From an uncultured Sphingobacteriales bacterium (lineage in GTDB: Bacteria > Bacteroidota > Bacteroidia > CAILMK01 > CAYYUA01): a stretch of DNA of 64,000 bases. Of the stretch, positions 48,147 to 62,971 are shown in pieces. How positions within the stretch are numbered: position 1 is the stretch's first letter; the number at the start of each line of letters is the position of its first letter. The stretch lies in the NCBI GenBank assembly GCA_964595485.1, contig CAZQQN010000006.1, forward strand, positions 7,633 through 71,632, given 5' to 3'. Below the pieces are notes generated by a model. That model did no database searches and was not told where the DNA came from. It saw only the letters and a list, made by a program, of their open reading frames with translations. A program made the position numbers and the translations under genes.

Positions 48147-48746
48147 TTATCTTTTTGCTTCCAGGTATTCTTGTTTGAAAAACTCCTCGTAAAGGGGCAG
48201 TTTTTTATTCTTAATCACCTTTTTGTAATTATTGATATTAGCAACGAAGTGGTTTGGTGAATTAATACCCAGTTTTTTAATCAGCTTGTCATCGTTGCCA
48301 ACGCTTTCCAGGTAGTTAAGGGCTTGTGTTTTGTTTTTAAAATCCCTTATTATAATCATACGCTTTGTCTCTCCGTACATCAGAGTTGTAATATTCAAAT
48401 TTAAGAACTTGTAATATTCAGCGTTGTAATCTGAGAACTCCTCTTGAATCTTTCGGGTGTTATTGTTCTTCAAAGAAACAACAATGAAATAAAGGTGTGG
48501 CTTTTCAGCTTTTTGACTAAAAGGGAAATCTTTTTCTTCACCGCCAGTGGACACCTTTTCCCCTTTATTAGCAACTAGAAAGTTGTAGACATTCTGAGCA
48601 TGGTTTACCGTTTGTTTTTTATTGGGATAGGCTTCTATGAATTCCTTTAGTTTTTGTTTGAAAGCCTTTTTGGTATCTTGATTCTTCCCTTCGCATAAAA
48701 TGGTAAGGTATTCAAATTTGTGTTTTAAGTAGTTCGCTTCAAACAT
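48147..48746 (-). CDS. Hypothetical cytoplasmic protein (no recognisable domain)
   Basis: About 199 aa from the internal Met (MFEANYL...), which avoids overlapping the upstream TPR gene. Downstream of the TPR lipoprotein gene and upstream of PBP1A on the same strand. Confidence 0.4.
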   Translation of the reverse strand: MFEANYLKHKFEYLTILCEGKNQDTKKAFKQKLKEFIEAYPNKKQTVNHAQNVYNFLVANKGEKVSTGGEEKDFPFSQKAEKPHLYFIVVSLKNNNTRKIQEEFSDYNAEYYKFLNLNITTLMYGETKRMIIIRDFKNKTQALNYLESVGNDDKLIKKLGINSPNHFVANINNYKKVIKNKKLPLYEEFFKQEYLEAKR

Positions 48747-48759
48747 TGAGTCTGCTTTT

Positions 48760-50811
48760 TCATGCCTGGCAATTACCCTCTTGGTAATACTGGTACGTAT
48801 TTTTGTAAAATTTCTCAAGTTTTGGATTACTTTTTTGAGCTTGTTGACGTAATTGCTCAGGGTTCTGTATTAAAGTGGCATATTTGCTTTTTGGATACTT
48901 AGTAGCAAGCTTTCGTTTATACTTTTCAGCATTTGTTTTTTTCCCCTCATCCTTGTTTAGCTTGTAAAGGTAGTAGTAAGCCTTTGGCTCATATTTGCTA
49001 CCGGGATAGTTCTCGTTAAGCTTATTAAGATAATTTCTGGCTTTATCAATATCCTGAAGGTCTTGGTAATAAATGACACCGGTATTGAAAAGTGCTCGCT
49101 TTATGGCTTTTTGGGATGAGGTTAATTTATTACTATCGAACGGAATTTTGGCGTAAAATTGCTTTTCTCTGTCGGGTAGTTTGTTAAAATTTTCTGGAAT
49201 GACGTTGTACCTTTTATTTAAAGGTTTCTTACCTTTTTTGGTTTGAGCTAACTTATCTTCCTTGTCAGGTTCTTCCTTGTCAGGTTCTTCTTCGTTTCGC
49301 CGAACTTTATCCGTTTCAGTACGCCAGTTATCCCTTAAAGGTCTGTTACCCCATTGCCTTTTAAATGCCGGTTTCCCTTTACTTTTAGCCGACTCATTGT
49401 AAAAATACCAAGTCCCCGAGTTCTGATTACCCATTAAGTCCTGTTGCTGATTTTGGTTAAGATTTCTTTGTTGTTTCCGCTTTAATTGCTTTAGTTGCCG
49501 TTGGTTTCTTTGCTGTTGCTTTTTCTTTTTCTTTTTTTCTTTTTCTTTTCTAACAATTTTCTTGAATTGGGCACGAAACTGCCCTTTATCCCATGATCTC
49601 ATTGCTTGCAAACTATCCTGGAGCTTTAGGGTCTTTTTATGGCTTACCAAGTCATCCAGCACAGCTTTTTTGTTTTTCAATTGCTCATAATTTTCATTTT
49701 CTGGGGTAATGAGGGCAAAAGTACTATCAAAATAGGCTTTCGCTCTATCGTAATTGTCCTTTTTAAAATGATACTGGGCTAAATTCTGATAAGCTGTAGC
49801 TTTTTGTTCTGAAGTAGCTTTTTTTGCTTTTAATGCTTTATTTAAGTAGTTGATAAAAGCTTCCCGGTTATTATTTTTCTTTGCCAATTGGGCTAATTCA
49901 TAATAAATACGGCTTTTGTAATCAACATTTTTGTCATCCTTTAGCATTCTTTTCAAGTCTTCCTGCAATTTACTTATATTTCTTCCGCCTTTCTTTAAAT
50001 AGCATGAAGCTTTATTAATCTTAGCATGGAAAGCTGTCTCATAAACGGGTCGATTGGATAAGACCTTGTTATATTCAAATATTGCTTTAGAAAAATTCTT
50101 TTCTTCCTGGTAAAGTTGCCCAAGGATAAAGTGCAAACGAGTCTTAAAGTCTTTATTGCTCACTTTAGGTAGGGTTTCTTTAATCTTTTTAGAGGCTGTG
50201 TTATACTGGTTACTCTGGATGGCTACTGATGCTTCTGTCAGGTTTAGAGCTTTATTAAGCTCCTCATTTTCAGGGAAGTTTTTATCACTTTTGATGTTGG
50301 TTATCAAAGCCCTGGCTTGATTGACATCATCTTGTTTAAGGTGTGTCCGAACAACCCAAATGGACGCCTTATAGGCTTCGTTGCTGCCTTTGTACTTACT
50401 TTTAACGTAGCGGAATCTTTGTTTAGCTGAGACATAATCTCCCTTGTAAAATATGGCTTTTCCCATTAGCAGGTAACAATTATCCGTCCATTTGCTTGAC
50501 TCATGCTTTTGGATTACCCTTGTACACTTTTCTACAATTTTGTCGGATTTACTTGCATTACCTTTTGCCATTTCTTTAGGTGGATAACGGTATATTGGCA
50601 GTATTTCATTATAATCATCCGGGAATTGTTCATTGTTTGTTTTAACCATCTCCCGCATGAGCTCCCTGGCATTGAAATAGCCGTTGTATTTGGCTGTGAT
50701 ATTGTGATAAATTTGCGCTATCTTCGTCCCTTCAAGGGACTTACAGCCTTTCAGCCCGAGAATGAGAATAAGCAAGGCAAAAAAGAAAACCGCTGGCTTT
50801 ATTTGTTTCAA
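48760..50811 (-). CDS. Tetratricopeptide-repeat (TPR) lipoprotein with a K/Q-rich low-complexity linker
   Basis: 683 aa. Signal peptide plus Cys (LKGCKS). Multiple TPR-like helical repeats. Central KEKEKKKKKKQQQRNQRQLKQLKRKQQ and EEPDKEEPDKE repeats. C-terminal TPR-like region. Confidence 0.75.
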   Translation of the reverse strand: MKQIKPAVFFFALLILILGLKGCKSLEGTKIAQIYHNITAKYNGYFNARELMREMVKTNNEQFPDDYNEILPIYRYPPKEMAKGNASKSDKIVEKCTRVIQKHESSKWTDNCYLLMGKAIFYKGDYVSAKQRFRYVKSKYKGSNEAYKASIWVVRTHLKQDDVNQARALITNIKSDKNFPENEELNKALNLTEASVAIQSNQYNTASKKIKETLPKVSNKDFKTRLHFILGQLYQEEKNFSKAIFEYNKVLSNRPVYETAFHAKINKASCYLKKGGRNISKLQEDLKRMLKDDKNVDYKSRIYYELAQLAKKNNNREAFINYLNKALKAKKATSEQKATAYQNLAQYHFKKDNYDRAKAYFDSTFALITPENENYEQLKNKKAVLDDLVSHKKTLKLQDSLQAMRSWDKGQFRAQFKKIVRKEKEKKKKKKQQQRNQRQLKQLKRKQQRNLNQNQQQDLMGNQNSGTWYFYNESAKSKGKPAFKRQWGNRPLRDNWRTETDKVRRNEEEPDKEEPDKEDKLAQTKKGKKPLNKRYNVIPENFNKLPDREKQFYAKIPFDSNKLTSSQKAIKRALFNTGVIYYQDLQDIDKARNYLNKLNENYPGSKYEPKAYYYLYKLNKDEGKKTNAEKYKRKLATKYPKSKYATLIQNPEQLRQQAQKSNPKLEKFYKNTYQYYQEGNCQA

Positions 50812-51118
50812 AATTTCGATACCATTTTATTCATTTCAAAGAAATAACTCGGAACAGGCAAAAATATTTTAAAAAGGCCAATGGTAAAGATTTTATTTAA
50901 CCTTAATTACTTATTCAATGGTTTTAAAATGTCTTCCGTTCAGTAATTACTTATTTTGAACCATATTAATGAAAAAAAGCAAATTTAAAGATTTTTGAAA
51001 TCTCTTAACGTTGGTATTGTAATATTAAGCTAATTGAGAATGCATTAGGAATACGTAGAGGTATTTTTCTTGTAGTAATTTACAGAAAATCATTTCATAA
51101 AAAAATTGAATTAAGCGT

Positions 51119-51970
51119 TTGAAAAGGTTAAAAAATAAATACAGACTGGTAATACTTAATGAGACGGATTTCGAGGAGAAAGCTTCTATTTCCATAAAGC
51201 TGCTCAATGTTCTGGCGTTTTTTAGCGTTATTTTCATTACCATGTTTTTTATTTTCTATTTATTATTCGGATTTACCCCTATGAAAGCTTTCTTACCGGT
51301 TACGGGGTATTCAGCTGAGCAGAAAAAAGTTGCAAGAATGGCTTATAAAGTAGATTCCTTAAAACATGTTGTGAACAGGAGGGAAAGTTACCTAAGCAAT
51401 ATCAAGTCAATCCTCACCGGGGAGGTAGGTGATTCAGCAAGACCCAAACGCGAACAATCTAAGGATTTGAAAGTAAAAAGTGAAGAAATTAATCTTCAGG
51501 ATACTTCAAGTGTTGACTCCGTATTCAAGGAAAGGTTCCGGTCTCAAGATCCATACAGACTTAGCTTATCATCTTCTCAATCGACTTCCGACAACCTTGC
51601 TAAATATGCTTTTTTCCCGCCTTTAAAAGGTATGATCACTTCTGAATATAATGAAGGGCTTGGTCATTATGCCGTGGATGTGGTCGGACCAAAAGATATT
51701 GGTATTAAGGCTGTCTTAAGCGGTACAGTAATATTTTCAGAATGGTCCGCATCCACTGGTTATGTTATTATGATTCAGCATCCTAATAATATCGTTTCAG
51801 TTTACAAACACAATTCGCAATTGTTAAAAAAAGTTGGTAAATTTGTGGAAGCTGGAGAAGTTATAGCGATTATTGGGGAATCCGGTGAGCTAAGTACAGG
51901 CCCGCATCTGCATTTTGAGCTATGGCATAATGGTAACCCAATTAATCCTCAAAAGTACATTGCTTTTTAA
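51119..51970 (+). CDS. Membrane-anchored M23 (LytM-type) metallopeptidase
   Basis: 283 aa. Short cytoplasmic N-terminus, one TM (LLNVLAFFSVIFITMFFIFYLLF), periplasmic coiled region. M23 motifs HYAVDV...HLHFELWHNGNPINP. The track start is a TTG. Confidence 0.8.
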   Translation: MKRLKNKYRLVILNETDFEEKASISIKLLNVLAFFSVIFITMFFIFYLLFGFTPMKAFLPVTGYSAEQKKVARMAYKVDSLKHVVNRRESYLSNIKSILTGEVGDSARPKREQSKDLKVKSEEINLQDTSSVDSVFKERFRSQDPYRLSLSSSQSTSDNLAKYAFFPPLKGMITSEYNEGLGHYAVDVVGPKDIGIKAVLSGTVIFSEWSASTGYVIMIQHPNNIVSVYKHNSQLLKKVGKFVEAGEVIAIIGESGELSTGPHLHFELWHNGNPINPQKYIAF

Positions 51971-52068
51971 CTTTAATTCAAACTTATTTGTCTATTACCT
52001 GTTAGTTATATAATGCATAAAATAATATGAAACCTTCTTTTTAAATAGCCTTAACCAAACTAAACATT

Positions 52069-52596
52069 ATGTTTAAAAAGAATAAAGCTTTTAATGAAAA
52101 AGGTAAAGATGAATTGAATGGAAATTCAATTAATTTAGTTGGTGATTCCACTAAAATTGTTGGGGATGTGGAAACCGAAACCGATATTCGGGTGGACGGC
52201 ACAGTTGAAGGCAATATCGTTACAAAAGGTAAACTTGTTTTAGGAGAAAGTGCAGCGATTAAAGGTAATTGTTACTGCCATGCCGGGGATTTTTCCGGGA
52301 GAATTAATGGTAATATTTATTGTAAAGACCAATTATTATTAAAGTCAACTGCCCAGGTCCATGGGGATATCTTTACAAAACGTTTCGTTGTTGAGAAAGA
52401 TGCGAATTTCAATGGTCAATGTGAAATGAGGGAAGAAATAAATTTCCCCAGTGATAAAAACACTTCTCGTGATGCTAATGGTGCTAAAGTACAAAACGGC
52501 TCCTCAGCTCCAGAAGATAACCAAAATACAAAACCTCGTAGTGGAAAAGAAGCAGAAAAAAGAGCGCAAGAAGGACAAAAAGCCTCCTCTGTATAA
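52069..52596 (+). CDS. Bactofilin (polymer-forming cytoskeletal protein, DUF583)
   Basis: 175 aa. Repetitive beta-helical bactofilin core (VGDVETETDIRVDGTVEGNIVTKGKLVLGESAAIKGN...). Disordered K/E/Q-rich tail. Confidence 0.85.
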   Translation: MFKKNKAFNEKGKDELNGNSINLVGDSTKIVGDVETETDIRVDGTVEGNIVTKGKLVLGESAAIKGNCYCHAGDFSGRINGNIYCKDQLLLKSTAQVHGDIFTKRFVVEKDANFNGQCEMREEINFPSDKNTSRDANGAKVQNGSSAPEDNQNTKPRSGKEAEKRAQEGQKASSV

Positions 52597-52771
52597 ATAT
52601 GCCCACTACCTTGGCATTGGTTTCAGGATCATGGGAACTGTTCTTGCTGGCGTTGTAATAGGTTACCTTGTTGACTATTACATGGGCAATCAAACCAATT
52701 ATTTTACGTTAATATTCTCCCTCGCGGCTTTAATCATTATGCTATACCAGCTTATCAAAGAATTTTCGTAA
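52541..52771 (+). CDS. AtpZ/AtpI-family small membrane protein preceding the F-ATPase operon
   Basis: Basic N-terminus followed by two hydrophobic helices (YAHYLGIGFRIMGTVLAGVVIGYLV...). The start is uncertain: GTG at 52541 (76 aa) or ATG at 52631 (46 aa). The track ORF from 52451 overlaps the bactofilin gene by 145 nt. Confidence 0.55.
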   Translation: MEKKQKKERKKDKKPPLYKYAHYLGIGFRIMGTVLAGVVIGYLVDYYMGNQTNYFTLIFSLAALIIMLYQLIKEFS

Positions 52772-52772
52772 A

Positions 52773-53186
52773 ATGGCAAGAAATAACATTGGCGGGTTCT
52801 CAAAACCTTTTTTGGTTTTAGGCCTGATTACGATTGGTTTGTTGCTTATCACTAAGCCAATATGGAAGGACGGTATATTAATGCTACTGCTTTACAATAA
52901 CCTTTTCTTATTTACGATTACTTATTTGTCAGGGGTGGCAATGGTTTACACCCTAATGGATAACCATACAAGGTTTATGTTTGCGATGGCAGGTAGTACC
53001 ATAGGCAAACTTTTGCTGTCTTTTATTTACATAGCCTTATTAGTTTATTACAATGAAGACCAGGCATTTACAATTGTTGCCTCTTTTTTCTTCTTTTACA
53101 TATTGTTTACCGGATTTGAAGTTTTTCAATTATTTCATAAATTGCGCCCGCATTTAAAAAAGGAAAACAAAAGTGAAAATCACTAA
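52773..53186 (+). CDS. Hypothetical 4-TM membrane protein in the atp operon leader (AtpI-like position)
   Basis: 137 aa, four hydrophobic helices. Located between AtpZ and atpB, overlapping atpB by 14 nt. Confidence 0.5.
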   Translation: MARNNIGGFSKPFLVLGLITIGLLLITKPIWKDGILMLLLYNNLFLFTITYLSGVAMVYTLMDNHTRFMFAMAGSTIGKLLLSFIYIALLVYYNEDQAFTIVASFFFFYILFTGFEVFQLFHKLRPHLKKENKSENH

Positions 53187-54288
53187 ATCTCCCGCCATAC
53201 GTTGGATATTCCTTCTAAGCTTTCTTTCATTCTTTTTAAGTTTTTCAAGTAAAGCCCTGGCATCCAGCGAAAAAAGTGAAGAGTCAGATAAAAGTCACTC
53301 AAAAGAGAGTTTTGAGCCAGGTGAAATGATCCTTCATCATATTAAGGATGAATACAAATGGCACTTCTTTACCATTGGCGATTTTCACGCTACAATTTAT
53401 TTCCCTGTTATTCTTTACACATCTGATAAAGGTCTTGTTTCTTTTAGCTCTAAACACCTCTACAAAAGTGAGGAAAATAAGTACCGGGGTTTTAAACTTT
53501 CCCACAGAGAAATAAAAGCTACTTCTGGCGCTAAAGTATATGATTTTTCCGTCACGAAAAACGTTGCTTCGATGCTACTTAGCGCTTTGATTATGCTGTG
53601 GATCTTTCTTGTGGTAGCAAGGCGTTACAGTAGACAGCCAAAGCAACCACCAAAAGGGATTCAATCATTGTTAGAGCCTGTTATTGTATTTATGCGGGAT
53701 GAGGTCGTGAAACCTGCCATAGGAAAGGACTGGCCTAAATACTTCCCTTACGTTATCAGCGTTTTCTTTTTCATATGGATTAATAACCTGTTGGGACTTA
53801 TCCCCGGAGCAGCCAATGTTACTGGTAATATAGCTGTAACCCTTTGCTTAGCAATCATATCATTTTTGATCATTTTATTTAGTGCCAGAAAGGATTATTG
53901 GCAGCATATTTTTAACACACCAGGTGTTCCTTGGTGGTTAAAATTTCCTGTGCCTCTAATGCCATTTGTTGAAACACTTGGAATGTTCACAAAGCCTTTT
54001 GCCCTCACTGTCCGTCTTTTTGCTAACATTGCTGCAGGCCATATCCTCATTTTAAGTGTAATTTCTTTGATTTTTATTTTCGGCGCTAAAAGCCCTACAT
54101 TAGGCTTTAGTGTTGTAACCCCTATATCTCTGGCCTTTACCCTGTTTTTATATTTTCTTGAGCTACTGGTGGCTGCAGTGCAAGCATACATTTTTGCCAT
54201 GCTGTCAGCAGTTTTCATAGGTGAGGCCGTGGCTGAACACCATGAGGATGAAGAAGTTGAAGAGGCTATAAGTGAAGAAGCCAGTTGA
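53173..54288 (+). CDS. atpB: F0F1 ATP synthase subunit a (long Bacteroidota form)
   Basis: 371 aa. N-terminal extension with a signal-like segment. Conserved a-subunit motif LTVRLFANIAAGHIL with the essential Arg. Confidence 0.9.
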   Translation: MKITKSPAIRWIFLLSFLSFFLSFSSKALASSEKSEESDKSHSKESFEPGEMILHHIKDEYKWHFFTIGDFHATIYFPVILYTSDKGLVSFSSKHLYKSEENKYRGFKLSHREIKATSGAKVYDFSVTKNVASMLLSALIMLWIFLVVARRYSRQPKQPPKGIQSLLEPVIVFMRDEVVKPAIGKDWPKYFPYVISVFFFIWINNLLGLIPGAANVTGNIAVTLCLAIISFLIILFSARKDYWQHIFNTPGVPWWLKFPVPLMPFVETLGMFTKPFALTVRLFANIAAGHILILSVISLIFIFGAKSPTLGFSVVTPISLAFTLFLYFLELLVAAVQAYIFAMLSAVFIGEAVAEHHEDEEVEEAISEEAS

Positions 54289-54321
54289 AAGTAAGATTTT
54301 TTGAATTGATGAATTTTTTAA

Positions 54322-54591
<270 letters not shown>

Positions 54592-54606
54592 AATGCAGAA
54601 AAATTT

Positions 54607-54660
54607 CAGGTTTTGTTTTCCGGCGGTTGGCCGGAAGCAAAACCTGTTCTTGATTTTTTA
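54607..54660 (+). terminator. Stem-loop plus T-tract after atpE (intra-operon attenuator/partial terminator)
   Basis: CAGGTTTTGTTTTCCGGC-ggttg-GCCGGAAGCAAAACCTG, a roughly 17-bp imperfect hairpin, followed by ttcttgatttttta. It lies between atpE and atpF. Confidence 0.45.
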
Positions 54661-54680
54661 ATCTAAGAAAATTTTAAAAT

Positions 54681-55175
54681 ATGGATTTATTAATTCCCGA
54701 TTTAGGCTTATTTGTTTGGACATTGGTTGTTTTCCTTATCGTACTTTTTATTCTCGCTAAAAAAGCATGGTCTCCCATAGCCAATGCACTGCAAAACAGA
54801 GAACAGTCTATTGAAAATGCCCTTAATGAAGCAAGCAAAGCAAGGGAGGAAATTGATAACCTGAAAGCTGAGAATGATAAACTTATTCAAGATGCTAAAG
54901 TGGAAAGGGATAAAATCCTTAAAGAGGCAAGGGAAACCAAAGAAAAAATGATAGAGGATGCCAAGGAAGAGGCCCGGAAGGAAAGCCAGAAAATAAAAGA
55001 AGAGGCCAATAAAGAGATTCAAAAGGAAAGGGATAAAGCCTTCCAGAGTTTAAAAGGTGAGGTTGCTGACATTGCAATGGATATCGCTTCTAAAGTCCTT
55101 CGCGAAGAATTAGAAAAAGAGGGTAAGCAGGAAAATCTTGTAGAAAAGTATATTGAAGAATCCCAGGTAAATTAG
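54681..55175 (+). CDS. atpF: F0F1 ATP synthase subunit b
   Basis: 164 aa. One N-terminal TM, then a long charged coiled coil (K/E-rich). Confidence 0.85.
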   Translation: MDLLIPDLGLFVWTLVVFLIVLFILAKKAWSPIANALQNREQSIENALNEASKAREEIDNLKAENDKLIQDAKVERDKILKEARETKEKMIEDAKEEARKESQKIKEEANKEIQKERDKAFQSLKGEVADIAMDIASKVLREELEKEGKQENLVEKYIEESQVN

Positions 55176-55181
55176 CATTTC

Positions 55182-55727
55182 ATGTCAGAAATAAGGGTTG
55201 CCAACCGGTATGCTAAGGCTTTAATTGCTCTTGCTGAAGAGCAAGGGTCTATTGAAGAGGTTTATGAAAATGCCGAGAAGTTCTTGAATATTTGTAAAGA
55301 GAACAGGGACTTTGAAACTATTTTGGGTAATCCAATCATTCCCCAGGAAAAGAAAGTCTCAATCGTTAAGAAACTTTTTTCTGATCAACTTTCTGAACAA
55401 ACCTTAAACTTTATTATTCTTATAATACGAAAGGGCAGGGGTGCCTTATTAGTACCCACTTTCGAACAGTTAAAGGAATCATACAAACGGATAAAAGGAA
55501 TTGCTTCGGCTAAGGTTTATTCACCAATTAAGCTTTCCGATAATGCCCTCAAAAAATTAAAAGAGATCGTTGAAAAAGGTTCAGAATGGGAAGTTAATGA
55601 GGTGGAACTCAATAATGAAGTTGATGATACCCTATTGGGCGGCTTTTTGCTTCAGTTTGATGATAAACTTTTAGACAAAAGTGTAAATACCCAGCTTAAG
55701 GAGCTGCGCAGGACATTTAAAAATTAA
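55182..55727 (+). CDS. atpH: F0F1 ATP synthase subunit delta (OSCP)
   Basis: 181 aa. OSCP-like pattern [12 protein letters not shown]...LLGGF. Confidence 0.85.
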
Positions 55728-55749
55728 TCAAAAATTAAATCAGGTTATA

Positions 55750-57333
55750 ATGGCAGACGTAAAACCTAACGAAGTATCAGAAATACTGAGAAACGAACTT
55801 TCTGGCTACAAAACTGAAGAAGATCTTCAAGAAGTTGGAACGGTACTCCAGGTAGGAGATGGCATCGCTCGTATTTATGGGCTGAATGCTGTTAAATCCG
55901 GTGAACTTATTGAATTTGATAATGGTACCCAAGGCATTGTCCTGAATCTTGAAGAAGACAATGTTGGTGGTGTACTTTTAGGTAGTGATGAAGGTATTAA
56001 AGAAGGTTCCAACGTAAAAAGAACGGGCCGAATTGCATCTGTTAATGTTGGAGAGGGTATGCTTGGGCGTGTAGTGAATACATTGGGTGAGCCCATTGAT
56101 GGTAAAGGTCCTATTGAAGGTGAGCTTTATGAAATGCCTATCGAAAGGAAAGCACCTGGTGTCATTTACAGAGAGCCAGTAGAAGAGCCTCTTCAGACCG
56201 GTATCAAATCAGTGGATTCAATAATTCCGATTGGTCGCGGGCAGCGCGAATTGATCATTGGTGATCGCCAAACCGGAAAGAGCACGATTGGTATTGATAC
56301 CATTATCAACCAAAGGAAAAATTATGAAAATGGCGAGCCTGTTTTCTGTGTATATGTTGCTACAGGCCAGAAAAACTCGACCATTGCCCAAACAGTCCGT
56401 ACCCTGGAAGAGCATGGCGCTATGGATTACACAGTAGTTGTCGCGGCTAGTGCAGCTTACCCTGCTCCGCTTCAGTTTTACGCACCTTTTACTGGTTGTG
56501 CTATTGGGGAATTCTTCCGGGATACAGGCCGCTCTGCGCTTTTAGTTTATGATGACCTTTCCAAACAGGCTGTGGCATACCGGGAAGTATCACTGCTTCT
56601 AAGGCGCCCACCCGGGCGAGAGGCTTATCCCGGTGATGTTTTTTACCTTCACTCCAGGCTATTAGAAAGAGCTTGTAAGGTCATTAACGTTGATAGCCTT
56701 GTTCAGAATATGAACGATCTTCCGGAGTCTATCCAGGATCAAGCAAAAGGTGGGGGCTCCCTTACAGCATTACCTATTATTGAAACTCAGGCTGGTGACG
56801 TTTCAGCTTATATCCCGACTAACGTTATCTCCATTACAGATGGTCAAATATTCCTGGAAACTGAGTTGTTTAATTCCGGTGTAAGGCCCGCAATTAATGT
56901 TGGTATTTCAGTTTCGCGGGTAGGTGGCAGTGCCCAGATTAAGCCAATGAAGAAAACAGCTGGTACTCTAAAGCTCGACTTGGCCCAATACAGGGAATTA
57001 GAAGCCTTTGCAAAGTTCGGCTCGGACTTGGATCCCACTACCAAGCAAGTACTTGACAAAGGTGCCAGGAACGTGGAAATCCTTAAGCAAGGGGAAAATA
57101 TGCCAGTACCGGTTGAAAAACAAGTTGCCATTATTCACTGTGGTACGCAAGGTTTATTGACTGACATTCCTGTGGAAAAAGTTACGGTGTTTGAAAATGA
57201 ATTATTGGAGATGCTCGAAGCCAAACATCGGGATATACTTGACCAGATAAGGGAAGGTACCTGGAATGATGATATCCAGAATAAAATTGAGGAATTAGCA
57301 AAAGATCTGAAATCTACTTACATTGCTCAGTAA
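55750..57333 (+). CDS. atpA: F0F1 ATP synthase subunit alpha
   Basis: 527 aa. Walker [10 protein letters not shown]. The IYVAIGQK-like region ([11 protein letters not shown]). Walker [17 protein letters not shown]. Confidence 0.97.
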
Positions 57334-57414
57334 CAATAAAACCAATTAATAAAAGGATAGGGGAACCCGTTCGAAAATCCCCTTTCTTTATTAATCCCTA
57401 AAATCGGACATTGA

Positions 57415-58344
57415 ATGGGTAGTTTAAAAGAAATAAGGAACAGGATTGGTTCTGTCCAGAATACGCAGCAGATTACAAAAGCCATGAAAATGGTTGCCGC
57501 TGCTAAATTAAGGAAAGCTCAGGATGCTATTCAAAAAATGAGGCCTTATGCAAGTAAACTGAATGACATAACAGCCCATGTATCCGATAGTCTGGAGGAA
57601 TCAAATTCTTACCATAAATATTTTCAGCAGCGAGAGATGAACCGCGTTCTTTTGATTCCAATGACCGCTGATAAAGGGCTGTGTGGTGCATTCAATAATA
57701 ATATCCAGAAATTAACGAATCAGGTTATCAGAGAACGGTACCCGGAGATGTTCCAACAGGGCAAGCTTGATCTCTTATGTATTGGTAAAAAAGGCTATGA
57801 GTTCTTTAAAAAACAAGAACACAACGTGGTTGATGGTTATACCGATTTTTTCAATAAGCCTACTTATGAAAAAACTATGGAAATCGTTGAGAAAGTAGTA
57901 GGCTGGTACGATTACCACCAATATGACCGCATTGAGATCATTTATAATTCGTTTAAAAATGCGGTTACTTATTACCCTACCGCCCACCAATTTTTACCTA
58001 TTAGGAGTTTAAGTGATATAGAAAGCCAGACTCGTGCTAATGAAGCTTCGGATAGTAGCAGTGCAGAATCTGACAGAAAGTATGACTACCTTTTCGAGCC
58101 TTCTAAGCAAGAAATTATAGAAGAATTAGTCCCGAAAAGTTTAAAGATTATGTTTTACAAGGATGTTTTGGATTCCAGCGCAGCCGAGCATGGTTCCAGG
58201 ATGACCGCTATGGATAATGCCACTGACAATGCCGAGGAATTAATCAGTGACTTGAAGCTTCAATATAATAAAGCCCGCCAGGCAGCTATCACGAAAGAAA
58301 TCAGTGAAATAGTTGGTGGTGCTGAAGCGCTCTCAAATGGCTAG
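57415..58344 (+). CDS. atpG: F0F1 ATP synthase subunit gamma
   Basis: 309 aa. N-terminal MGSLKEIRNRIGSVQNTQQITKAMKMVAAAKLRKAQ. C-terminal ...ITKEISEIVGGAEAL, typical of gamma. Confidence 0.93.
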   Translation: MGSLKEIRNRIGSVQNTQQITKAMKMVAAAKLRKAQDAIQKMRPYASKLNDITAHVSDSLEESNSYHKYFQQREMNRVLLIPMTADKGLCGAFNNNIQKLTNQVIRERYPEMFQQGKLDLLCIGKKGYEFFKKQEHNVVDGYTDFFNKPTYEKTMEIVEKVVGWYDYHQYDRIEIIYNSFKNAVTYYPTAHQFLPIRSLSDIESQTRANEASDSSSAESDRKYDYLFEPSKQEIIEELVPKSLKIMFYKDVLDSSAAEHGSRMTAMDNATDNAEELISDLKLQYNKARQAAITKEISEIVGGAEALSNG

Positions 58345-58401
58345 GTATTTCAAAAGAGTTCATTTTACTGAAAAAGATGACAAGCTTAGCCATCCCATTT
58401 A

Positions 58402-58968
58402 TTAGCCTGTGATTTTTGGATAAATGCGATGCATGGGTAGTCCCATCACATTAAAATAAGAACCTTCAATAGAATCAATGCCGATCAGGCCGATCCATTC
58501 CTGTATAGCATAGGCTCCTGCCTTATCATAAGGCTCATAATGGGTTATGTAATAATCAATGTCTGATTCGTGTAATTTCCGGAAGTGAACCTTTGTTAAA
58601 TCATAAAAGCTTTCTTCCCCCTCTTCTGTTAACAAGCATACACCAGTTATAACTTCGTGCGTCTTTCCTGACAGTTCCTTCAAATAATACTTAGCATCCT
58701 TGTAGTTCAATGGTTTATTTAGGATGGTTTCCCCAAGTTTGACGATGGTATCAGCTGTTAAAACTATTTTACCGCTCACTTTTTCCTTGAAACTCCGTGC
58801 TTTTTTCTCAGCCAAATAAACCGGTACTTCTTTCGTTTTGAATTGCTCAGGGTAATTCTCATCAATCTCAGTAGGTTGAACTGAAAAATCAAAGCCCGCT
58901 TCGGTTAAAATGATTTTCCTCCGAGGTGAGCCTGAAGCAAGGATCAGATTTTTTTTTCGTTGAAGCAT
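58402..58968 (-). CDS. maf: Maf-family nucleoside triphosphate pyrophosphatase
   Basis: 188 aa. N-terminal LILASGSPRRKIIL. Conserved acidic/Lys residues of Maf/Ham1. Confidence 0.85.
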   Translation of the reverse strand: MLQRKKNLILASGSPRRKIILTEAGFDFSVQPTEIDENYPEQFKTKEVPVYLAEKKARSFKEKVSGKIVLTADTIVKLGETILNKPLNYKDAKYYLKELSGKTHEVITGVCLLTEEGEESFYDLTKVHFRKLHESDIDYYITHYEPYDKAGAYAIQEWIGLIGIDSIEGSYFNVMGLPMHRIYPKITG

Positions 58969-59088
58969 TTTAGAGGGGTTTTATTCCTAAAAAATAGCCC
59001 TATTCAACTTTCAAATTTGAGATTTCAATTTCTCCAAAAAAACTGTATGATTAAAATAAGTTGATATGAAAAATATTTTTAGTTTTTT

Positions 59089-59706
59089 TTAAAAATCCTC
59101 TATATTTAAGATGGCATCACATCTATCATAATAATCTTCCGAATTATTGGAAGAAATAATTAAACACCTGTTGTCGCTATATTCGTTGATTAGGGTTTTA
59201 TACCAGTCAATGCCCTCCCGGTCCAGGTGACTTGTCGGCTCATCCAGGAGCAAAATTGGGCTTTCAAAAAATATCGCAAGGGCCAGTCTTAGACGCTGAA
59301 CCATACCTGAGGAAAAGTATTTAATTGTTTTATGGCGGTGCTTATACAATCCGGTTAGGTCAAGGATGCTTTCAATAGTAATGTTCGGTTTTAATGCCTT
59401 AAATTGAGCCTGAAATGCCAGGTGTTCTTTAAGGGTAAATTCCGGTAATAAATCCAAGTGGGGTGTTACCATTGATTGATGGTAGTGTAAATACTCAACG
59501 TCAACAGGTTCATTATTAATAAGATAAGTGATTTCACCTTTGCTTGGTGACAAAAACCCGCTAATAAGTTGAAGTAATGTCGACTTACCGGAACCATTAT
59601 TTCCTGTAATAGCGTAAATTTTATTGCTTTCAAACTGGTATGTAAGGTTTTTGAATACCCAGGTATAATGAAAGTGTTTGCCTATATTCTCTAAATGAAT
59701 TGCCAT
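59089..59706 (-). CDS. Short ABC-transporter ATP-binding protein lacking the H-loop histidine
   Basis: 205 aa. Walker A GNNGSGKST. Q-loop HQSM. Signature FSSGMVQR. Walker B ILLLDEPTSHLD (D-loop SHLD). No His in the expected H-loop segment (CLIISSNN). No TMD gene adjacent. Confidence 0.7.
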   Translation of the reverse strand: MAIHLENIGKHFHYTWVFKNLTYQFESNKIYAITGNNGSGKSTLLQLISGFLSPSKGEITYLINNEPVDVEYLHYHQSMVTPHLDLLPEFTLKEHLAFQAQFKALKPNITIESILDLTGLYKHRHKTIKYFSSGMVQRLRLALAIFFESPILLLDEPTSHLDREGIDWYKTLINEYSDNRCLIISSNNSEDYYDRCDAILNIEDF

Positions 59707-59738
59707 TATGATATCCTCAGGTTTTGTTATCAGGGAGC

Positions 59739-60518
59739 TTAAGGCCTGTAACCACGCATAATCCCTCTTTCTGAGGCCATTATAAAACTGACGATCTCAT
59801 CCCTTTCCTGGGTAGCCGGGAGTTCCTTTTCCACTATTTCGAGCGCTTGGCTAATATTATTTCCTTTGAGATAAATGTGGCGATAAATCTCCTGAATTTC
59901 TTTAATCTTTTCAGGATCCATTCCGCGTCTTCTCATTCCTATTGAATTTATACCAACATAGGAGAGCGGTTCACGAGCAGCTTTGGTATAAGGAGGGACA
60001 TCTTTTCGAACCAAGGAACCTCCGGACACCATTACAAATTCACCAACTTTGACAAACTGTTGAACAGCCGTTAAGCCCCCAATTAAAGCGTAATCTTGCA
60101 AAGTAACATGACCGGCAATATTGACTGAATTTGCAATTATGCAGTTTTCTCCTATTAAGCAATCATGGGCAATATGCGTATAAGCCATTAGCAGGGAATT
60201 TTCGCCAATGGTTGTTTTATATTTATCGGATGTACCCCGGTTGATGGTAGCATATTCTCGAATGACAACCCCATCATTGATCAAAACCAGGGATTCTTCC
60301 CCTTGATATTTGAGGTCTTGGGGGATGGCAGAGATAACGCTACCGGGGAATATTTTGACATTTTTCCCGATTCTCGCCCCTTCCATAATAGTTACGTGGG
60401 GGCCAATCCAAGTGCCTTCATCAATCTCAACGTTACTATGGATGGTTACGAATGGTTCTATAACGACATTTTGAGCTATTTTAGCTTCTGGATGGACGTA
60501 AGCCAGGGGCTGGTGCAT
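59739..60518 (-). CDS. lpxA: Acyl-ACP--UDP-N-acetylglucosamine O-acyltransferase
   Basis: 259 aa. Left-handed beta-helix hexapeptide repeats. Catalytic His in the HIAHDC context. C-terminal helical domain. Confidence 0.93.
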   Translation of the reverse strand: MHQPLAYVHPEAKIAQNVVIEPFVTIHSNVEIDEGTWIGPHVTIMEGARIGKNVKIFPGSVISAIPQDLKYQGEESLVLINDGVVIREYATINRGTSDKYKTTIGENSLLMAYTHIAHDCLIGENCIIANSVNIAGHVTLQDYALIGGLTAVQQFVKVGEFVMVSGGSLVRKDVPPYTKAAREPLSYVGINSIGMRRRGMDPEKIKEIQEIYRHIYLKGNNISQALEIVEKELPATQERDEIVSFIMASERGIMRGYRP

Positions 60519-60524
60519 GCTGCT

Positions 60525-61922
60525 TTAATTGTTTTTAATGATTTGGGCCATGAGTTCTGCTTCTGTAACTAGCTTATTACCTACAAATGCTTGTCCTTTC
60601 ATATTACAAACGCCTCGCCGGATGGGAGAAAGCAGCTCCATCCTGACAATCAACTGGTCACCTGGAAGTACTTTTTCTCTGAATTTAGCATTCTCTATTT
60701 TCATGAAATAGGTTGAGTAATCAGAAGGGTTATCAATTTGACTTAGTATCATCACCCCGCCAACCTGTGACATAGCCTCGATCTGAAGGACGCCGGGCAT
60801 TACAGGATTCTGTGGAAAGTGACCCTCAAAGAAAGGCTCTGTCATTGTAACGTTTTTAACACCAACTATGTGTTTATCAGAAAGTTCAATGATTTTGTCT
60901 ACGTAAATGAAAGGATGCTCATGGGGTAAAAAATTTGAAACCTCTTTTGCATCATAAATGGGCTTACGGTTTGGGTTAATTTCAGGGGAATCCTGCTTTT
61001 TCTTCATTTTCTTCATGAAGTGTTTGATCTTTTTAGCGAACTCAATATTCGCTGCATGGCCCGGCCTTGCTGCCATTACCTGCGCTTTTATCGGGGTTCC
61101 GATTAAAGCAAGGTCTCCTATTAGATCAAGTAATTTATGACGAGCCGGCTCATTTTGATAACGAAGATCAATATTGTTTAAAATGCCTTCCGTTTTTACA
61201 TTGATATCTTCTTTGTTAAATAACTCGGCTAGGTTACTCATTTCATCCTTAGAAACCTGCTTATCTACAATAACGATTGCATTGTTTAGGTCTCCCCCTT
61301 GTATTAAGTTATTATTGACAAGCTCCTCTAATTCATGCAGGAAACAAAAAGTACGGCTGCTTGCTATCTCTTTGTTAAATTCCTGAAGCTCGGAGATAGA
61401 GGCATGTTGGCTCCCCAAAACCTGGGAATTGTAATCCACCATTACTGTTGAGCGATACCCATCTAAGGGCATCGCTATCATTTCCACATTTCGCTCTTCT
61501 TCAGAGTAGTGAATATTAAATGGGACTTCGAAATACTCTCGATTAGCATTTTGCTCCTTAATGCCAGCTTCCATTAGAGCATTAATAAAGGGTTGCGCAC
61601 TTCCATCCATAATAGGTGTTTCCGGGGCGTCCAACTCAACCATTATATTATCAACCTCCATCCCTGCCAGCGCAGCCATCACATGCTCCACTGTGGCGAT
61701 CATTAAGTCACCATTTAAACCAAGTGATGTTCCCCGAGAAGTATCCACCACATTTTCAATCTCAGCATCAATGATAGGTTCGTCTTCTAGATCCTTTCTT
61801 TTAAACTTGATGCCGTGGTTTTCAGGAGCAGGTTTAAACCCCATATTGACTTCCTTACCAGTATGAAGACCAACCCCTGAAACAATGGATGGCTTATCTA
61901 TGGTTGATTGTTTCGTTTTCAT
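60525..61922 (-). CDS. lpxC/fabZ: Bifunctional UDP-3-O-acyl-GlcNAc deacetylase / 3-hydroxyacyl-ACP dehydratase (LpxC-FabZ fusion)
   Basis: 465 aa. The N-terminal ~300 aa are LpxC-like ([20 protein letters not shown] zinc-ligand context). The C-terminal ~150 aa form a FabZ hotdog ([21 protein letters not shown]). Confidence 0.93.
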
Positions 61923-62971
61923 TTCTTTTTATCCTTAGCTTTTGACCCTTTAAGCTTTATTTCGATTGCTTTCAAACGTTCATAAATTTCAGGAAGTTGC
62001 TTGTAAAGAATGCTGGCCTTAAGGCCCTCTTTAACGGATGAAACAGGAGATCCAAACCATTTTTGGTTCGGTTCTTTTATGGAATTTGAAACCCCACTTT
62101 GGGCTCCTATTTGTGAACCGTCAGCTATTGTAATGTGGCCGGATATACCGACTTGTCCACCTATTACACAATTTTTTCCTATCTTGGAACTACCAGAAAT
62201 ACCTGTTTGCGCTGCGATGGCTGTGTTTTCACCAATTTCAACATTATGGGCTACCTGTATAAGGTTGTCCAATTTCACACCGCTTCTAATAATTGTTGAA
62301 CGCATAGTGGCGCGATCAATAGTGGTGTTTGATCCGATTTCTACATTATCTTCAATAACGACATTTCCTGTTTGTGGCATTTTCTTGAAAGCGCCACTCT
62401 TTTGAGGTGCAAATCCAAAGCCATCAGAACCTATGATTGACCCGGCGTGAATGATGCACTGCTTACCAATTTTTGTATTGTTATACAAGTGAACTGAAGA
62501 GTAGATTATTGAATTATCCCCGATTTCGCAACCATTATTGATTATTACGTGGGGATAGATTTTAACATTATTACCGATTTTAACATCCTTACCAATATAA
62601 CTAAAAGCTCCAATGAATACATTGTTTCCGTATTCAACGGATTCTGCAATGTGAACAGGGCTTTCTATGCCTTGCTTACCATGGCCATTTGTCTGGAATT
62701 GCTCCATTAGTAGGGATAAACTAGAGTAAACATCGTTTACATAGATCAAAGTTGGGCCATCTATATTATAATCGGGCACAAGGTCCTCATTCACCAAAAT
62801 AGCTGTAGCCTCGGTATTGTAAATATAGTGGGCATATTTTGGATTAGAGAGAAAAGTTATGGAGCCCTGAGTTGCTTCTTCAATAGGCGAAAATCCCTCT
62901 ATCAAGGCATCTTTGTTGCCTTCTATAGTGCCTTTTATGTATTGGTTTAACTCCTCGACCGTTATTTCCAT
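61919..62971 (-). CDS. lpxD: UDP-3-O-(3-hydroxyacyl)glucosamine N-acyltransferase
   Basis: 350 aa. N-terminal UDP-binding domain followed by hexapeptide-repeat beta-helix. Overlaps lpxC/fabZ by 4 nt. Confidence 0.93.

Follow-up and report, generated by a model that had tools for sequence, protein, structure and literature searches.

A bactofilin gene that overlaps atpZ joins a probable peptidoglycan-remodelling module to the ATP synthase operon in Bacteroidota

Introduction

In a 64,000-nucleotide (nt) stretch of DNA from an uncultured Sphingobacteriales bacterium (contig CAZQQN010000006.1; here called the window, in whose numbering the coordinates are given, each feature with its strand), the genes of an M23 peptidase and of a bactofilin stand directly ahead of atpZ and of the operon of the F-type ATP synthase, and the end of the bactofilin gene overlaps atpZ out of frame. 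About 100 distinct loci, belonging to several orders, show the same gene order with the same out-of-frame overlap. As the best explanation of the whole we propose, with moderate confidence, an ancestral operon that couples the expression of a wall-remodelling module resembling LmdC/BacA to that of the atp genes.

The block opens with an M23 (LytM-type) endopeptidase of 283 amino acids (aa), LmdC-like and bitopic, whose gene starts with TTG (51119-51970, plus strand; PF01551, E=4e-27). After 98 nt follows a bactofilin of 175 aa (52069-52596, plus; PF04519, E=1.5e-26), and then come AtpZ, a small protein with two transmembrane (TM) segments, whose most family-typical start is a GTG at 52541 that gives a product of 76 aa (52541-52771, plus; PF09527), a 4-TM protein of 137 aa in the position of AtpI (52773-53186, plus) and subunit a of the ATP synthase (atpB, 53173-54288, plus; Pfam ATP-synt_A). 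Hydropathy gives one membrane segment in the M23 protein, none in the bactofilin, two in AtpZ and four in the 137-aa protein. The initial annotation of this region had placed a bitopic M23 peptidase about 100 nt upstream of a bactofilin and had likened the pair to the LmdC/BacA type of module; the first of these statements agrees with the 98-nt spacer, the PF01551 match and the single hydrophobic segment, and the second with the bitopic architecture, the intact catalytic residues and the N-terminal membrane-targeting motif that are described below.

Conservation of the gene block

The conservation of this arrangement was followed from both of its ends. For the survey anchored on the atp genes, an alignment of subunit a was scanned against one genome per species, which gave 80 Bacteroidota loci; these were annotated with hidden Markov models (HMMs) iterated from the window proteins, and 75 of them had enough upstream DNA. 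A bactofilin stood directly ahead of atpZ or atpB in 28 of the 75, and M23, bactofilin, AtpZ, the 4-TM protein and atpB followed each other in this order in 14 of the 75, the full order being found in Sphingobacteriales-like genomes, Catalimonadaceae, Roseivirgaceae, Cytophagales and Pelobium. In a further 14 of the 75 the bactofilin precedes atpB with no M23 gene next to it in the same orientation, among others in metagenome-assembled genomes (MAGs) of Bacteroidales and Flavobacteriales; AtpZ was present in all of these except locus L063, where it has been lost and the bactofilin still stands directly before the 4-TM gene and atpB. The rest of the 75 have AtpZ, the 4-TM protein and atpB only (Hymenobacter, Pedobacter, Pontibacter, Siphonobacter, Albibacterium) or the 4-TM protein and atpB only (Aquirufa, Raineya, Spirosoma), and Chitinophagales have neither AtpZ nor the 4-TM protein.

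The second survey scanned metagenomes with an alignment of four bactofilin sequences and yielded 80 loci, 69 of them distinct; because the search patterns were derived from atp-linked members, it samples one bactofilin subfamily and not all bactofilins of Bacteroidota. AtpZ followed the bactofilin in 55 of the 56 loci with at least 650 nt of downstream sequence, atpB in all 41 with at least 1.5 kb downstream, and a co-oriented M23 gene preceded it in 33 of the 43 with at least 1 kb upstream. The sampled subfamily is essentially always linked to the atp genes. The sole exception without AtpZ (L103, 760-2064) has a more divergent bactofilin, followed after 22 nt by a gene which, judged by eye, we take to be D-Ala-D-Ala ligase (Ddl)-like and which would then be a link to the cell wall. 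The M23-bactofilin pair that had been named as the module in the initial annotation is thus seen in most loci, but the strongest junction of the block is that between bactofilin and atpZ (55/56), that between M23 and bactofilin being weaker (33/43).

Many lineages carry porW/sprE or a FabH-like gene in the M23 slot 5' of the bactofilin; a conserved FabH-like (KAS III) gene of 332 aa, for example, stands directly 5' of bactofilin-atpZ in the Bacteroidales MAGs L018, L021, L023, L044 and L066. In locus L050 about 1.1 kb is inserted between AtpZ and the 4-TM gene, with M23, bactofilin and AtpZ still side by side. Single look-ups recovered the order M23, bactofilin, AtpZ and atp in an Olleya aquimaris-like contig, in Mesoflavibacter and in L165, a locus with 61% GC in which S20 on the minus strand is followed by M23, bactofilin, AtpZ, an 84-aa open reading frame (ORF) and atpBEFHA. 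Across Bacteroidota the adjacency is therefore kept in Cytophagales, Sphingobacteriales, Flavobacteriales, Bacteroidales and the 61% GC lineage, so that the linkage first noticed in a single genome holds well beyond it, and the want of conservation that would have spoken against the initial annotation is clearly not what is seen.

In Flavobacterium psychrophilum the block may have come apart. According to the supplement of PMC9723704, strain THCO2-90 (2754975-2761805) has an RCC1-repeat gene, THC0290_2385, on the opposite strand between atpB and the 4-TM gene THC0290_2386. In the same source the 3' extension of the RCC1-repeat gene is antisense to the 4-TM gene (132 aa), and the latter is listed with a log2 value of about 8.6 against about 14.6 for atpD, that is, about 60-fold lower. 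The gene numbers of this species place sprE (FP2467) a few genes from atpH and atpA (FP2459 and FP2458), and from this numbering and spacing we infer that the bactofilin and atpZ lie between the gene of the 132-aa membrane protein and sprE. If they are so placed, bactofilin, atpZ and the 4-TM gene would be uncoupled from the atp structural genes in F. psychrophilum; atpD and atpC are encoded elsewhere in this species.

The dual-coding junction of bactofilin and AtpZ

The AtpZ reading frame of the window is open from 52451 to 52771 and matches PF09527 with 37.4 bits (cut-off 26.6 bits) over ORF residues 50-103, the 76-aa product having hydrophobic segments at residues 26-44 and 54-72. Every ATG, GTG or TTG start 5' of the conserved AtpZ core falls within the bactofilin ORF: the candidates are GTG 52541, which gives an overlap of 56 nt, GTG 52481, ATG 52478, ATG 52472, GTG 52469 and GTG 52451, which gives 146 nt, so that the overlap of 56-145 nt in the initial annotation was correct to within 1 nt. 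At its minimum extent the dual-coding stretch covers 52541-52596 (plus), where the C-terminal tail of the bactofilin is read in frame 0 and the AtpZ N-terminus in frame +1; it may begin as far upstream as 52451.

This geometry recurs across the loci. Relative to the bactofilin, AtpZ is read in the +1 frame in 31 of 31 loci of the genome set and in 65 of 66 from metagenomes, and its nearest start lies within the bactofilin ORF in 31/31 and 63/65, respectively, with overlaps of 8-77 nt; an ATG at -47 is met again in several orders. Counted from AtpZ profile position 1, the bactofilin stop codon ends at +28 or +31 nt in most loci; in the window its TAA is formed by the TAT-AAA codons (Y-K) of the AtpZ motif L-Y-K-Y. 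Since the AtpZ motif N-x-Y-x-K-Y-S-G is also kept in genomes without a bactofilin, the stretch of overlap genuinely encodes AtpZ. L165, of the 61% GC lineage, has the two genes side by side without overlap. Overlaps of bacterial genes are typically of 1 or 4 nt. Like these same-strand overlaps, the junction would hold two cistrons on one mRNA, but here the dual-coding stretch is long (11-77 nt, and at least 56 nt in the window) and the position of the stop codon is conserved across orders.

The overlap also touches annotation. AtpZ is called as a 53-aa protein in L002 (6524-6685), with a start inside the Pfam core, and is left uncalled on the Logan contig L001; because gene callers shun long overlaps, AtpZ is likely to be systematically truncated or overlooked when such genomes are annotated. 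A natural fusion of bactofilin and AtpZ, considered on the Rosetta-stone idea, was found in none of 58 bactofilin and 120 AtpZ relatives: the long bactofilin matches are N-terminal mis-starts, and all 120 AtpZ relatives have 62-87 aa.

How AtpZ is translated from inside another gene can be approached from its composition. The 90 nt around the AtpZ start contain 42% A as compared with 33% in the bactofilin domain, the enrichment being seen in 95 of 97 loci, and the region reaches 47% A in the window. The ribosomes of Bacteroidia work without Shine-Dalgarno pairing, according to PMC6847099 and PMC9976891. The A-rich junction fits de novo initiation of AtpZ in a weakly structured region, a fit that is supportive only, because the Lys-rich N-terminus of AtpZ would yield the same composition. 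One could instead imagine that programmed +1 frameshifting yields a membrane-anchored bactofilin-AtpZ fusion, as might be read from the +1 frame in 96 of 97 loci and from the fixed site of the bactofilin stop in the AtpZ motif; yet the constant frame is explained by common ancestry, AtpZ N-terminal extensions have start codons of their own in every locus, the genes of L165 are adjacent without overlap, and no in-frame natural fusion was found. The junction also has no significant RNA structure as compared with shuffled sequences (z=-0.16), and inspection by eye, no systematic motif search being made, showed no slippery motif shared among the junctions. Frameshifting is, on this evidence, very improbable.

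Promoters and transcript units

The consensus of the sigma-A -7 element of Bacteroidota is TAnnTTTG, at -12 to -5 (PMC9723704). Exact TAnnTTTG boxes were mapped relative to the start of the bactofilin domain in 49 M23-containing and 23 M23-less loci, the background being about 0.02-0.05 boxes per 50 nt. An exact box stands just 5' of the M23 start in 30 of 41 loci, and a second peak, 110-150 nt before the bactofilin ATG, lies at -200 to -150 in the M23-containing loci (33/49). In the M23-less loci an exact box is found at -150 to -50 in 16 of 23, and boxes occur ahead of atpB in about 15 of 44 M23-containing and about 12 of 21 M23-less loci. From the bactofilin start to AtpZ the boxes are at background level, with three hits in 49 loci over 400 nt each; no promoter belonging to AtpZ itself can therefore be recognised.

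The peak at -200 falls within M23 coding sequence. It lies 132 nt ahead of the M23 stop, where the codons GGT-Ann-TTT-GTn encode a conserved G-[NST]-F-V peptide. In the window the candidate box is TAAATTTG (51838-51845, plus), in the M23 codons G240-K-F-V243 and 231 nt before the bactofilin ATG. The Gly codon, from which the box takes its first T, is GGT in 33 of 39 sequences (85%), whereas ten further conserved Gly columns of these genes have GGT in 15-41%, and 34 of 35 sequences use TTT for Phe; this constraint on synonymous sites is selection at the nucleotide level, as an embedded promoter would show. Judged from such motif and codon statistics, the embedded box probably serves the bactofilin-atp unit as a promoter, alongside read-through from M23. 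The divergent intergenic region between porW and the M23 gene (50812-51118), the presumed M23 promoter region, holds in the window only boxes with one mismatch (50951, 50990 and 51062), and an exact box occurs at 52976 within the 4-TM gene.

A pattern scan of the plus strand found no terminator-like site in 51119-53376, Rfam gave no match in 50000-59000, and the 98-nt spacer between M23 and bactofilin folds no better than shuffled sequence (z=0.36); a sigma-70 promoter scan, with a model that is inappropriate for Bacteroidota, did not rise above shuffled expectation. Between the stop of the 4-TM gene and atpB a box is present in 30 of 71 other bactofilin loci, only where the gap is at least about 60 nt; the window and its closest relatives, whose 4-TM gene shares 14 nt with atpB, have no box before atpB. 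Because of this overlap and the missing box, the transcript unit of this lineage would extend from the bactofilin as far as atpG, and read-through from M23 may add to it. The transcriptional weld between the module and the atp operon that the initial annotation proposed is thus upheld as far as no terminator is detected, but qualified by the candidate separate -7 box within the 3' end of M23, and the weld to the atp structural genes, tight in the window, depends on the lineage, as the box before atpB (30/71) and the insertion in F. psychrophilum show.

The same region bears on the suggestion that the genes are juxtaposed by chance, or in single lineages only, and share no transcript. The want of an exact -7 box 5' of M23 in the window, the exact box in the 4-TM gene and the extra box before atpB in several lineages would suit it, but about 100 distinct loci from several orders have the same arrangement, the coding sequences overlap, and neither a terminator nor a promoter motif stands between bactofilin and atpZ, so that we give this suggestion hardly any credence.

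The M23 peptidase and the bactofilin

The catalytic and zinc-binding residues of the M23 protein, H183 and D187 (HxxxD), H231, and H263 and H265 (HxH), are invariant in 82 orthologues, for which reason the protein should be a catalytically competent LytM-type peptidase. Its orthologues form a large family with full-length members of about 290 aa and share the motif K-Y-R-L-V-I-L-N-(D/E)-x-T-F-E-E-K in the cytoplasmic tail; the M23 and bactofilin genes are co-oriented and lie 6-124 nt apart in relatives. Hydropathy finds a single hydrophobic segment (residues 31-49), and an AlphaFold2 (AF2) model, with a mean predicted local distance difference test (pLDDT) score of 75, has a TM helix at residues 28-52 (pLDDT about 92) and a long periplasmic helix at 64-100, after which a disordered linker leads to the M23 domain at 165-283 (pLDDT about 93). 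The bactofilin has its beta-helix domain at residues 23-119, aligned to positions 2-98 of the 98 of the PF04519 profile, and a K/E/Q-rich C-terminal tail of 54 aa. Its N-terminus, MFKKNKAF, matches the membrane-targeting consensus MFSKKKK, which has been reported for Bacteroidota too (PMC12448750), a resemblance of sequence only; the start MFKK(N/D) is shared by the bactofilin relatives P0004, P0010 and P0022. A literature search turned up no experimental study of any bactofilin of Bacteroidota.

The closest described counterpart is the LmdC-BacA module of M23 peptidase and bactofilin in Hyphomonas neptunium and Rhodospirillum rubrum (Pohl et al. 2024, PMC10945521). As there, the M23 gene is adjacent to the bactofilin gene, co-oriented and 5' of it, and as in LmdC a short cytoplasmic tail is followed by a single TM helix, then by a helix in the periplasm and, at the C-terminus, by an M23 domain whose catalytic residues are intact. 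The M23-bactofilin pairs of four Bacteroidota species have in fact already been catalogued as belonging to a conserved morphogenetic module, and those of Cyclobacterium, Echinicola and Pseudopedobacter have the same gene sizes (PMC10945521, Figure 7 source data). In contrast to LmdC-BacA, the pair described here is continuous with atpZ and the atp operon, its bactofilin gene overlaps atpZ, and M23 is dispensable for the arrangement (absent in 10 of 43 loci). We know of no stalked or spiral forms among the organisms that carry it.

PorW and the history of the block

On the other side of M23, and divergent from it, lies porW/sprE (48147-50811, minus; NCBIfam NF052312), the gene of a periplasmic tetratricopeptide repeat (TPR) lipoprotein of the T9SS, the type IX secretion system. 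In the window it is split into the ORFs 48760-50811, which scores 512 bits against a cut-off of 250 bits, and 48147-48818; residues 1-682 of the first correspond to residues 3-683 of the intact homologue in L002, and residues 12-223 of the second to its residues 682-893. The frame changes near 48760-48800, next to a short run of A; this is due to an indel of the assembly, or else the gene, which encodes a core T9SS component, is a real pseudogene. PorW neighbours the bactofilin in 65 of 72 distinct bactofilin loci: of the 50 loci with M23, 49 have porW pointing away from that gene, and in 16 M23-less loci it abuts the bactofilin co-directionally, among which L051 and L071 have the M23 orthologue on the far side and on the other strand, that is, the PorW-M23 pair has been inverted. 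It is absent near the bactofilin in six M23-less loci, all Bacteroidales MAGs with FabH-like or rhomboid genes upstream, and 22 genomes with neither M23 nor bactofilin (Hymenobacter, Pedobacter, Pontibacter and others) have it divergent from atpZ. No description of this synteny of PorW and atp, and so of T9SS and ATP synthase, was found in the literature. The conserved block as first named, from M23 through bactofilin and AtpZ to atp, was right in these members and incomplete in leaving out porW/sprE.

From these gene orders, the simplest history would start with an ancestral block of porW (divergent), M23, bactofilin, atpZ, the 4-TM gene and atpBEFHAG, from which M23 and bactofilin were later excised in some lineages and in which the PorW-M23 pair was inverted in Flavobacteriales. 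One might also hold that the module belongs with T9SS and gliding through PorW/SprE and that atp is merely the next conserved operon. The near-constant divergence of PorW from M23, its co-directional contact with the bactofilin in the 16 M23-less loci and the inversion of PorW-M23 as a unit in L051 and L071 speak for such an association; but PorW mostly lies on the opposite strand and cannot share a transcript, its adjacency to atpZ in the 22 genomes without M23 and bactofilin is independent of them, and the six Bacteroidales loci keep a bactofilin with no PorW nearby. We therefore consider this explanation improbable.

The 4-TM protein and the atp genes

The 4-TM gene begins 1 nt past the AtpZ stop. 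Its 137-aa product, with four hydrophobic segments, matched no Pfam or NCBIfam family, and PF19665 (DUF6168) gave no match even at E<=10 in the window protein and eight relatives; the counterpart in the Olleya-like L003, however, matches PF19665 at 2.3e-17. The 4-TM family, recovered by its iterated HMM in 66 loci, aligns with the DUF6168 group by hhalign over 83 columns (E=4.9e-5, probability 68%), and that group occupies the same slot between atpZ and atpB in Flavobacteriaceae. Judged from the hhalign comparison and from hydropathy, the 4-TM protein is probably a divergent DUF6168 in the position of AtpI. The product of atpB itself has an extension of about 130 aa ahead of ATP-synt_A (53173-53560) with a hydrophobic, signal-like start, and this N-terminal extension of subunit a is labelled PF28541 (DUF8433) in homologues.

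The remaining genes of the operon follow on the plus strand: atpE (subunit c, 54340-54591; Pfam ATP-synt_C), atpF (subunit b, 54681-55175; Pfam ATP-synt_B), atpH (subunit delta, 55182-55727; Pfam OSCP), atpA (subunit alpha, 55750-57333) and atpG (subunit gamma, 57415-58344), the last two taken from the ORF list with the order of the Pfam-labelled locus L002. These coordinates accord with the 4-TM gene and atpBEFHAG on one strand with overlaps or small gaps, as initially annotated. Neither atpD nor atpC stands downstream of atpG in the window. The next gene, on the minus strand, is Maf-like and belongs to a stretch (58402-62971, minus) with a putative ABC ATPase and with what we take by eye to be lpxA, a fused lpxC-fabZ and lpxD. 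Such a set of lpxA, lpxC-fabZ and lpxD would be ordinary lipid A gene content of Bacteroidota.

We know of no established function of AtpZ or DUF6168 in Bacteroidota. The best-described atp operon with comparable leader genes is atpZ-atpI-atpBEFHAGDC of Bacillus pseudofirmus OF4 (Hicks 2003, reviewed in PMC4453477), and according to that review a role of AtpZ in Mg2+ acquisition or ATP synthase support is known only from the genetics of this strain. The operon of the window is like it in having a small hydrophobic AtpZ (PF09527) and a 4-TM protein in the AtpI position, with subunit a heading the atp genes. It differs in that the Bacillus operon has no bactofilin or M23 gene upstream and no overlap, and in that the 4-TM protein of Bacteroidota is DUF6168-like and not demonstrably AtpI, with atpD and atpC encoded elsewhere.

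What holds the bactofilin to the atp genes

The initial annotation had put forward two functions, co-regulation of envelope remodelling with the energy supply and a part of the bactofilin in localising the ATP synthase, and both stand as hypotheses. The coupled-operon explanation can be spelled out as follows. The block would be ancient and vertically inherited in Bacteroidota, the window locus being one copy of it. Bactofilin and atpZ would be obligatorily co-transcribed, in the lineage of the window together with the 4-TM gene and atpBEFHAG, from the sigma-A -7 box embedded in M23 and by read-through from the M23 promoter, and AtpZ would be initiated de novo, without Shine-Dalgarno pairing, in the A-rich bactofilin tail. 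A membrane-bound bactofilin polymer and the bitopic M23 peptidase would form a peptidoglycan-remodelling module of the LmdC/BacA kind, for which attachment to atp would mainly mean constitutive, growth-coupled expression, frozen by the gene overlap, and the bactofilin would not be a required part of the ATP synthase. An obligatory role in the enzyme is argued against by the 22 genomes in which porW, atpZ, the 4-TM gene and atp are kept without M23 and bactofilin. The overlap would make relocation of the bactofilin costly and leave its loss possible, which fits a bactofilin that almost never leaves atpZ and an atpZ that often has no bactofilin.

Several observations weigh against this account. 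The embedded box overlaps the conserved G-x-F-V peptide, so that its recurrence partly reflects coding constraint, and the promoter calls come from motif and codon statistics. The cytoplasmic beta-hairpin with which LmdC binds BacA is not recovered in the AF2 model of the M23 protein, whose residues 1-27 are coil with a pLDDT of about 50. The bactofilin also persists with atpZ (55/56), in the F. psychrophilum block that appears cut off from atpB and, without AtpZ, in L063, a persistence which exceeds what locking by overlap would predict and hints at a functional tie. A published link bears on such a tie: in Helicobacter pylori, according to PMC9507126 (citing Blair 2018), Csd5 binds the bactofilin CcmA and, independently of CcmA, ATP synthase. 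The H. pylori system resembles that of the window in pairing a bactofilin with M23 peptidases (Csd1/Csd2-CcmA), but the link there is a protein interaction through Csd5 and not gene linkage, and no Csd5-like SH3 protein was seen here. To our knowledge, ccmA of H. pylori is not at the atp operon. Besides Csd5, no other published connection between a bactofilin and ATP synthase was found in the literature.

The principal alternative takes these hints further: the bactofilin would act directly with AtpZ and the 4-TM protein, which would serve it as receptors or be its clients, and by way of them with F1Fo, its polymer scaffolding the assembly or placement of ATP synthase. The near-invariable contact with AtpZ and its conserved overlap, the intact bactofilin-atpZ-4TM set that in F. 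psychrophilum appears cut off from atpB (L050 may be listed with it), L063 and the Csd5 interaction just described would all suit such a role, and AtpI-type proteins help in the stability and assembly of ATP synthase (PMC4453477). Yet atpZ, the 4-TM gene and atp occur without a bactofilin in at least 22 sampled Bacteroidota genomes, in Chitinophagales atpZ and the 4-TM gene are missing, other phyla have AtpZ at their atp operons and no bactofilin there (PMC4453477), and the 120 AtpZ and 58 bactofilin relatives include no fusion of the two. We regard this alternative as conceivable, if on the unlikely side. A broader form of it, in which the bactofilin is a cytoskeletal organiser of envelope machines powered by the proton-motive force and, with AtpZ and the DUF6168-like protein, places or assembles F1Fo and possibly PorW/T9SS, appears less likely still; if true, it would explain why the bactofilin gene has been fused to atpZ since before the orders diverged.

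Conclusion

The pairing of M23 and bactofilin and the atpZ-atpI-atp operons are known; their union, the conserved overlap and the association with PorW appear to be new, no description of the bactofilin-AtpZ/atp linkage, of the overlap or of the PorW association having been found in the literature that was searched, which excluded subscription-only sources. In the phylum-wide block the ATP synthase genes would share their transcript with those of a wall hydrolase and a protein of the cytoskeleton, and its dual-coding junction offers a testable entry point to the questions of whether envelope remodelling is coupled in its expression to energy metabolism, whether the bactofilin touches AtpZ or the ATP synthase, and how a Shine-Dalgarno-independent ribosome starts a gene inside another gene. 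For the genetics of these bacteria it means that bactofilin knockouts would be polar on atpZ and the atp genes unless their design respects the overlap and the embedded promoter.

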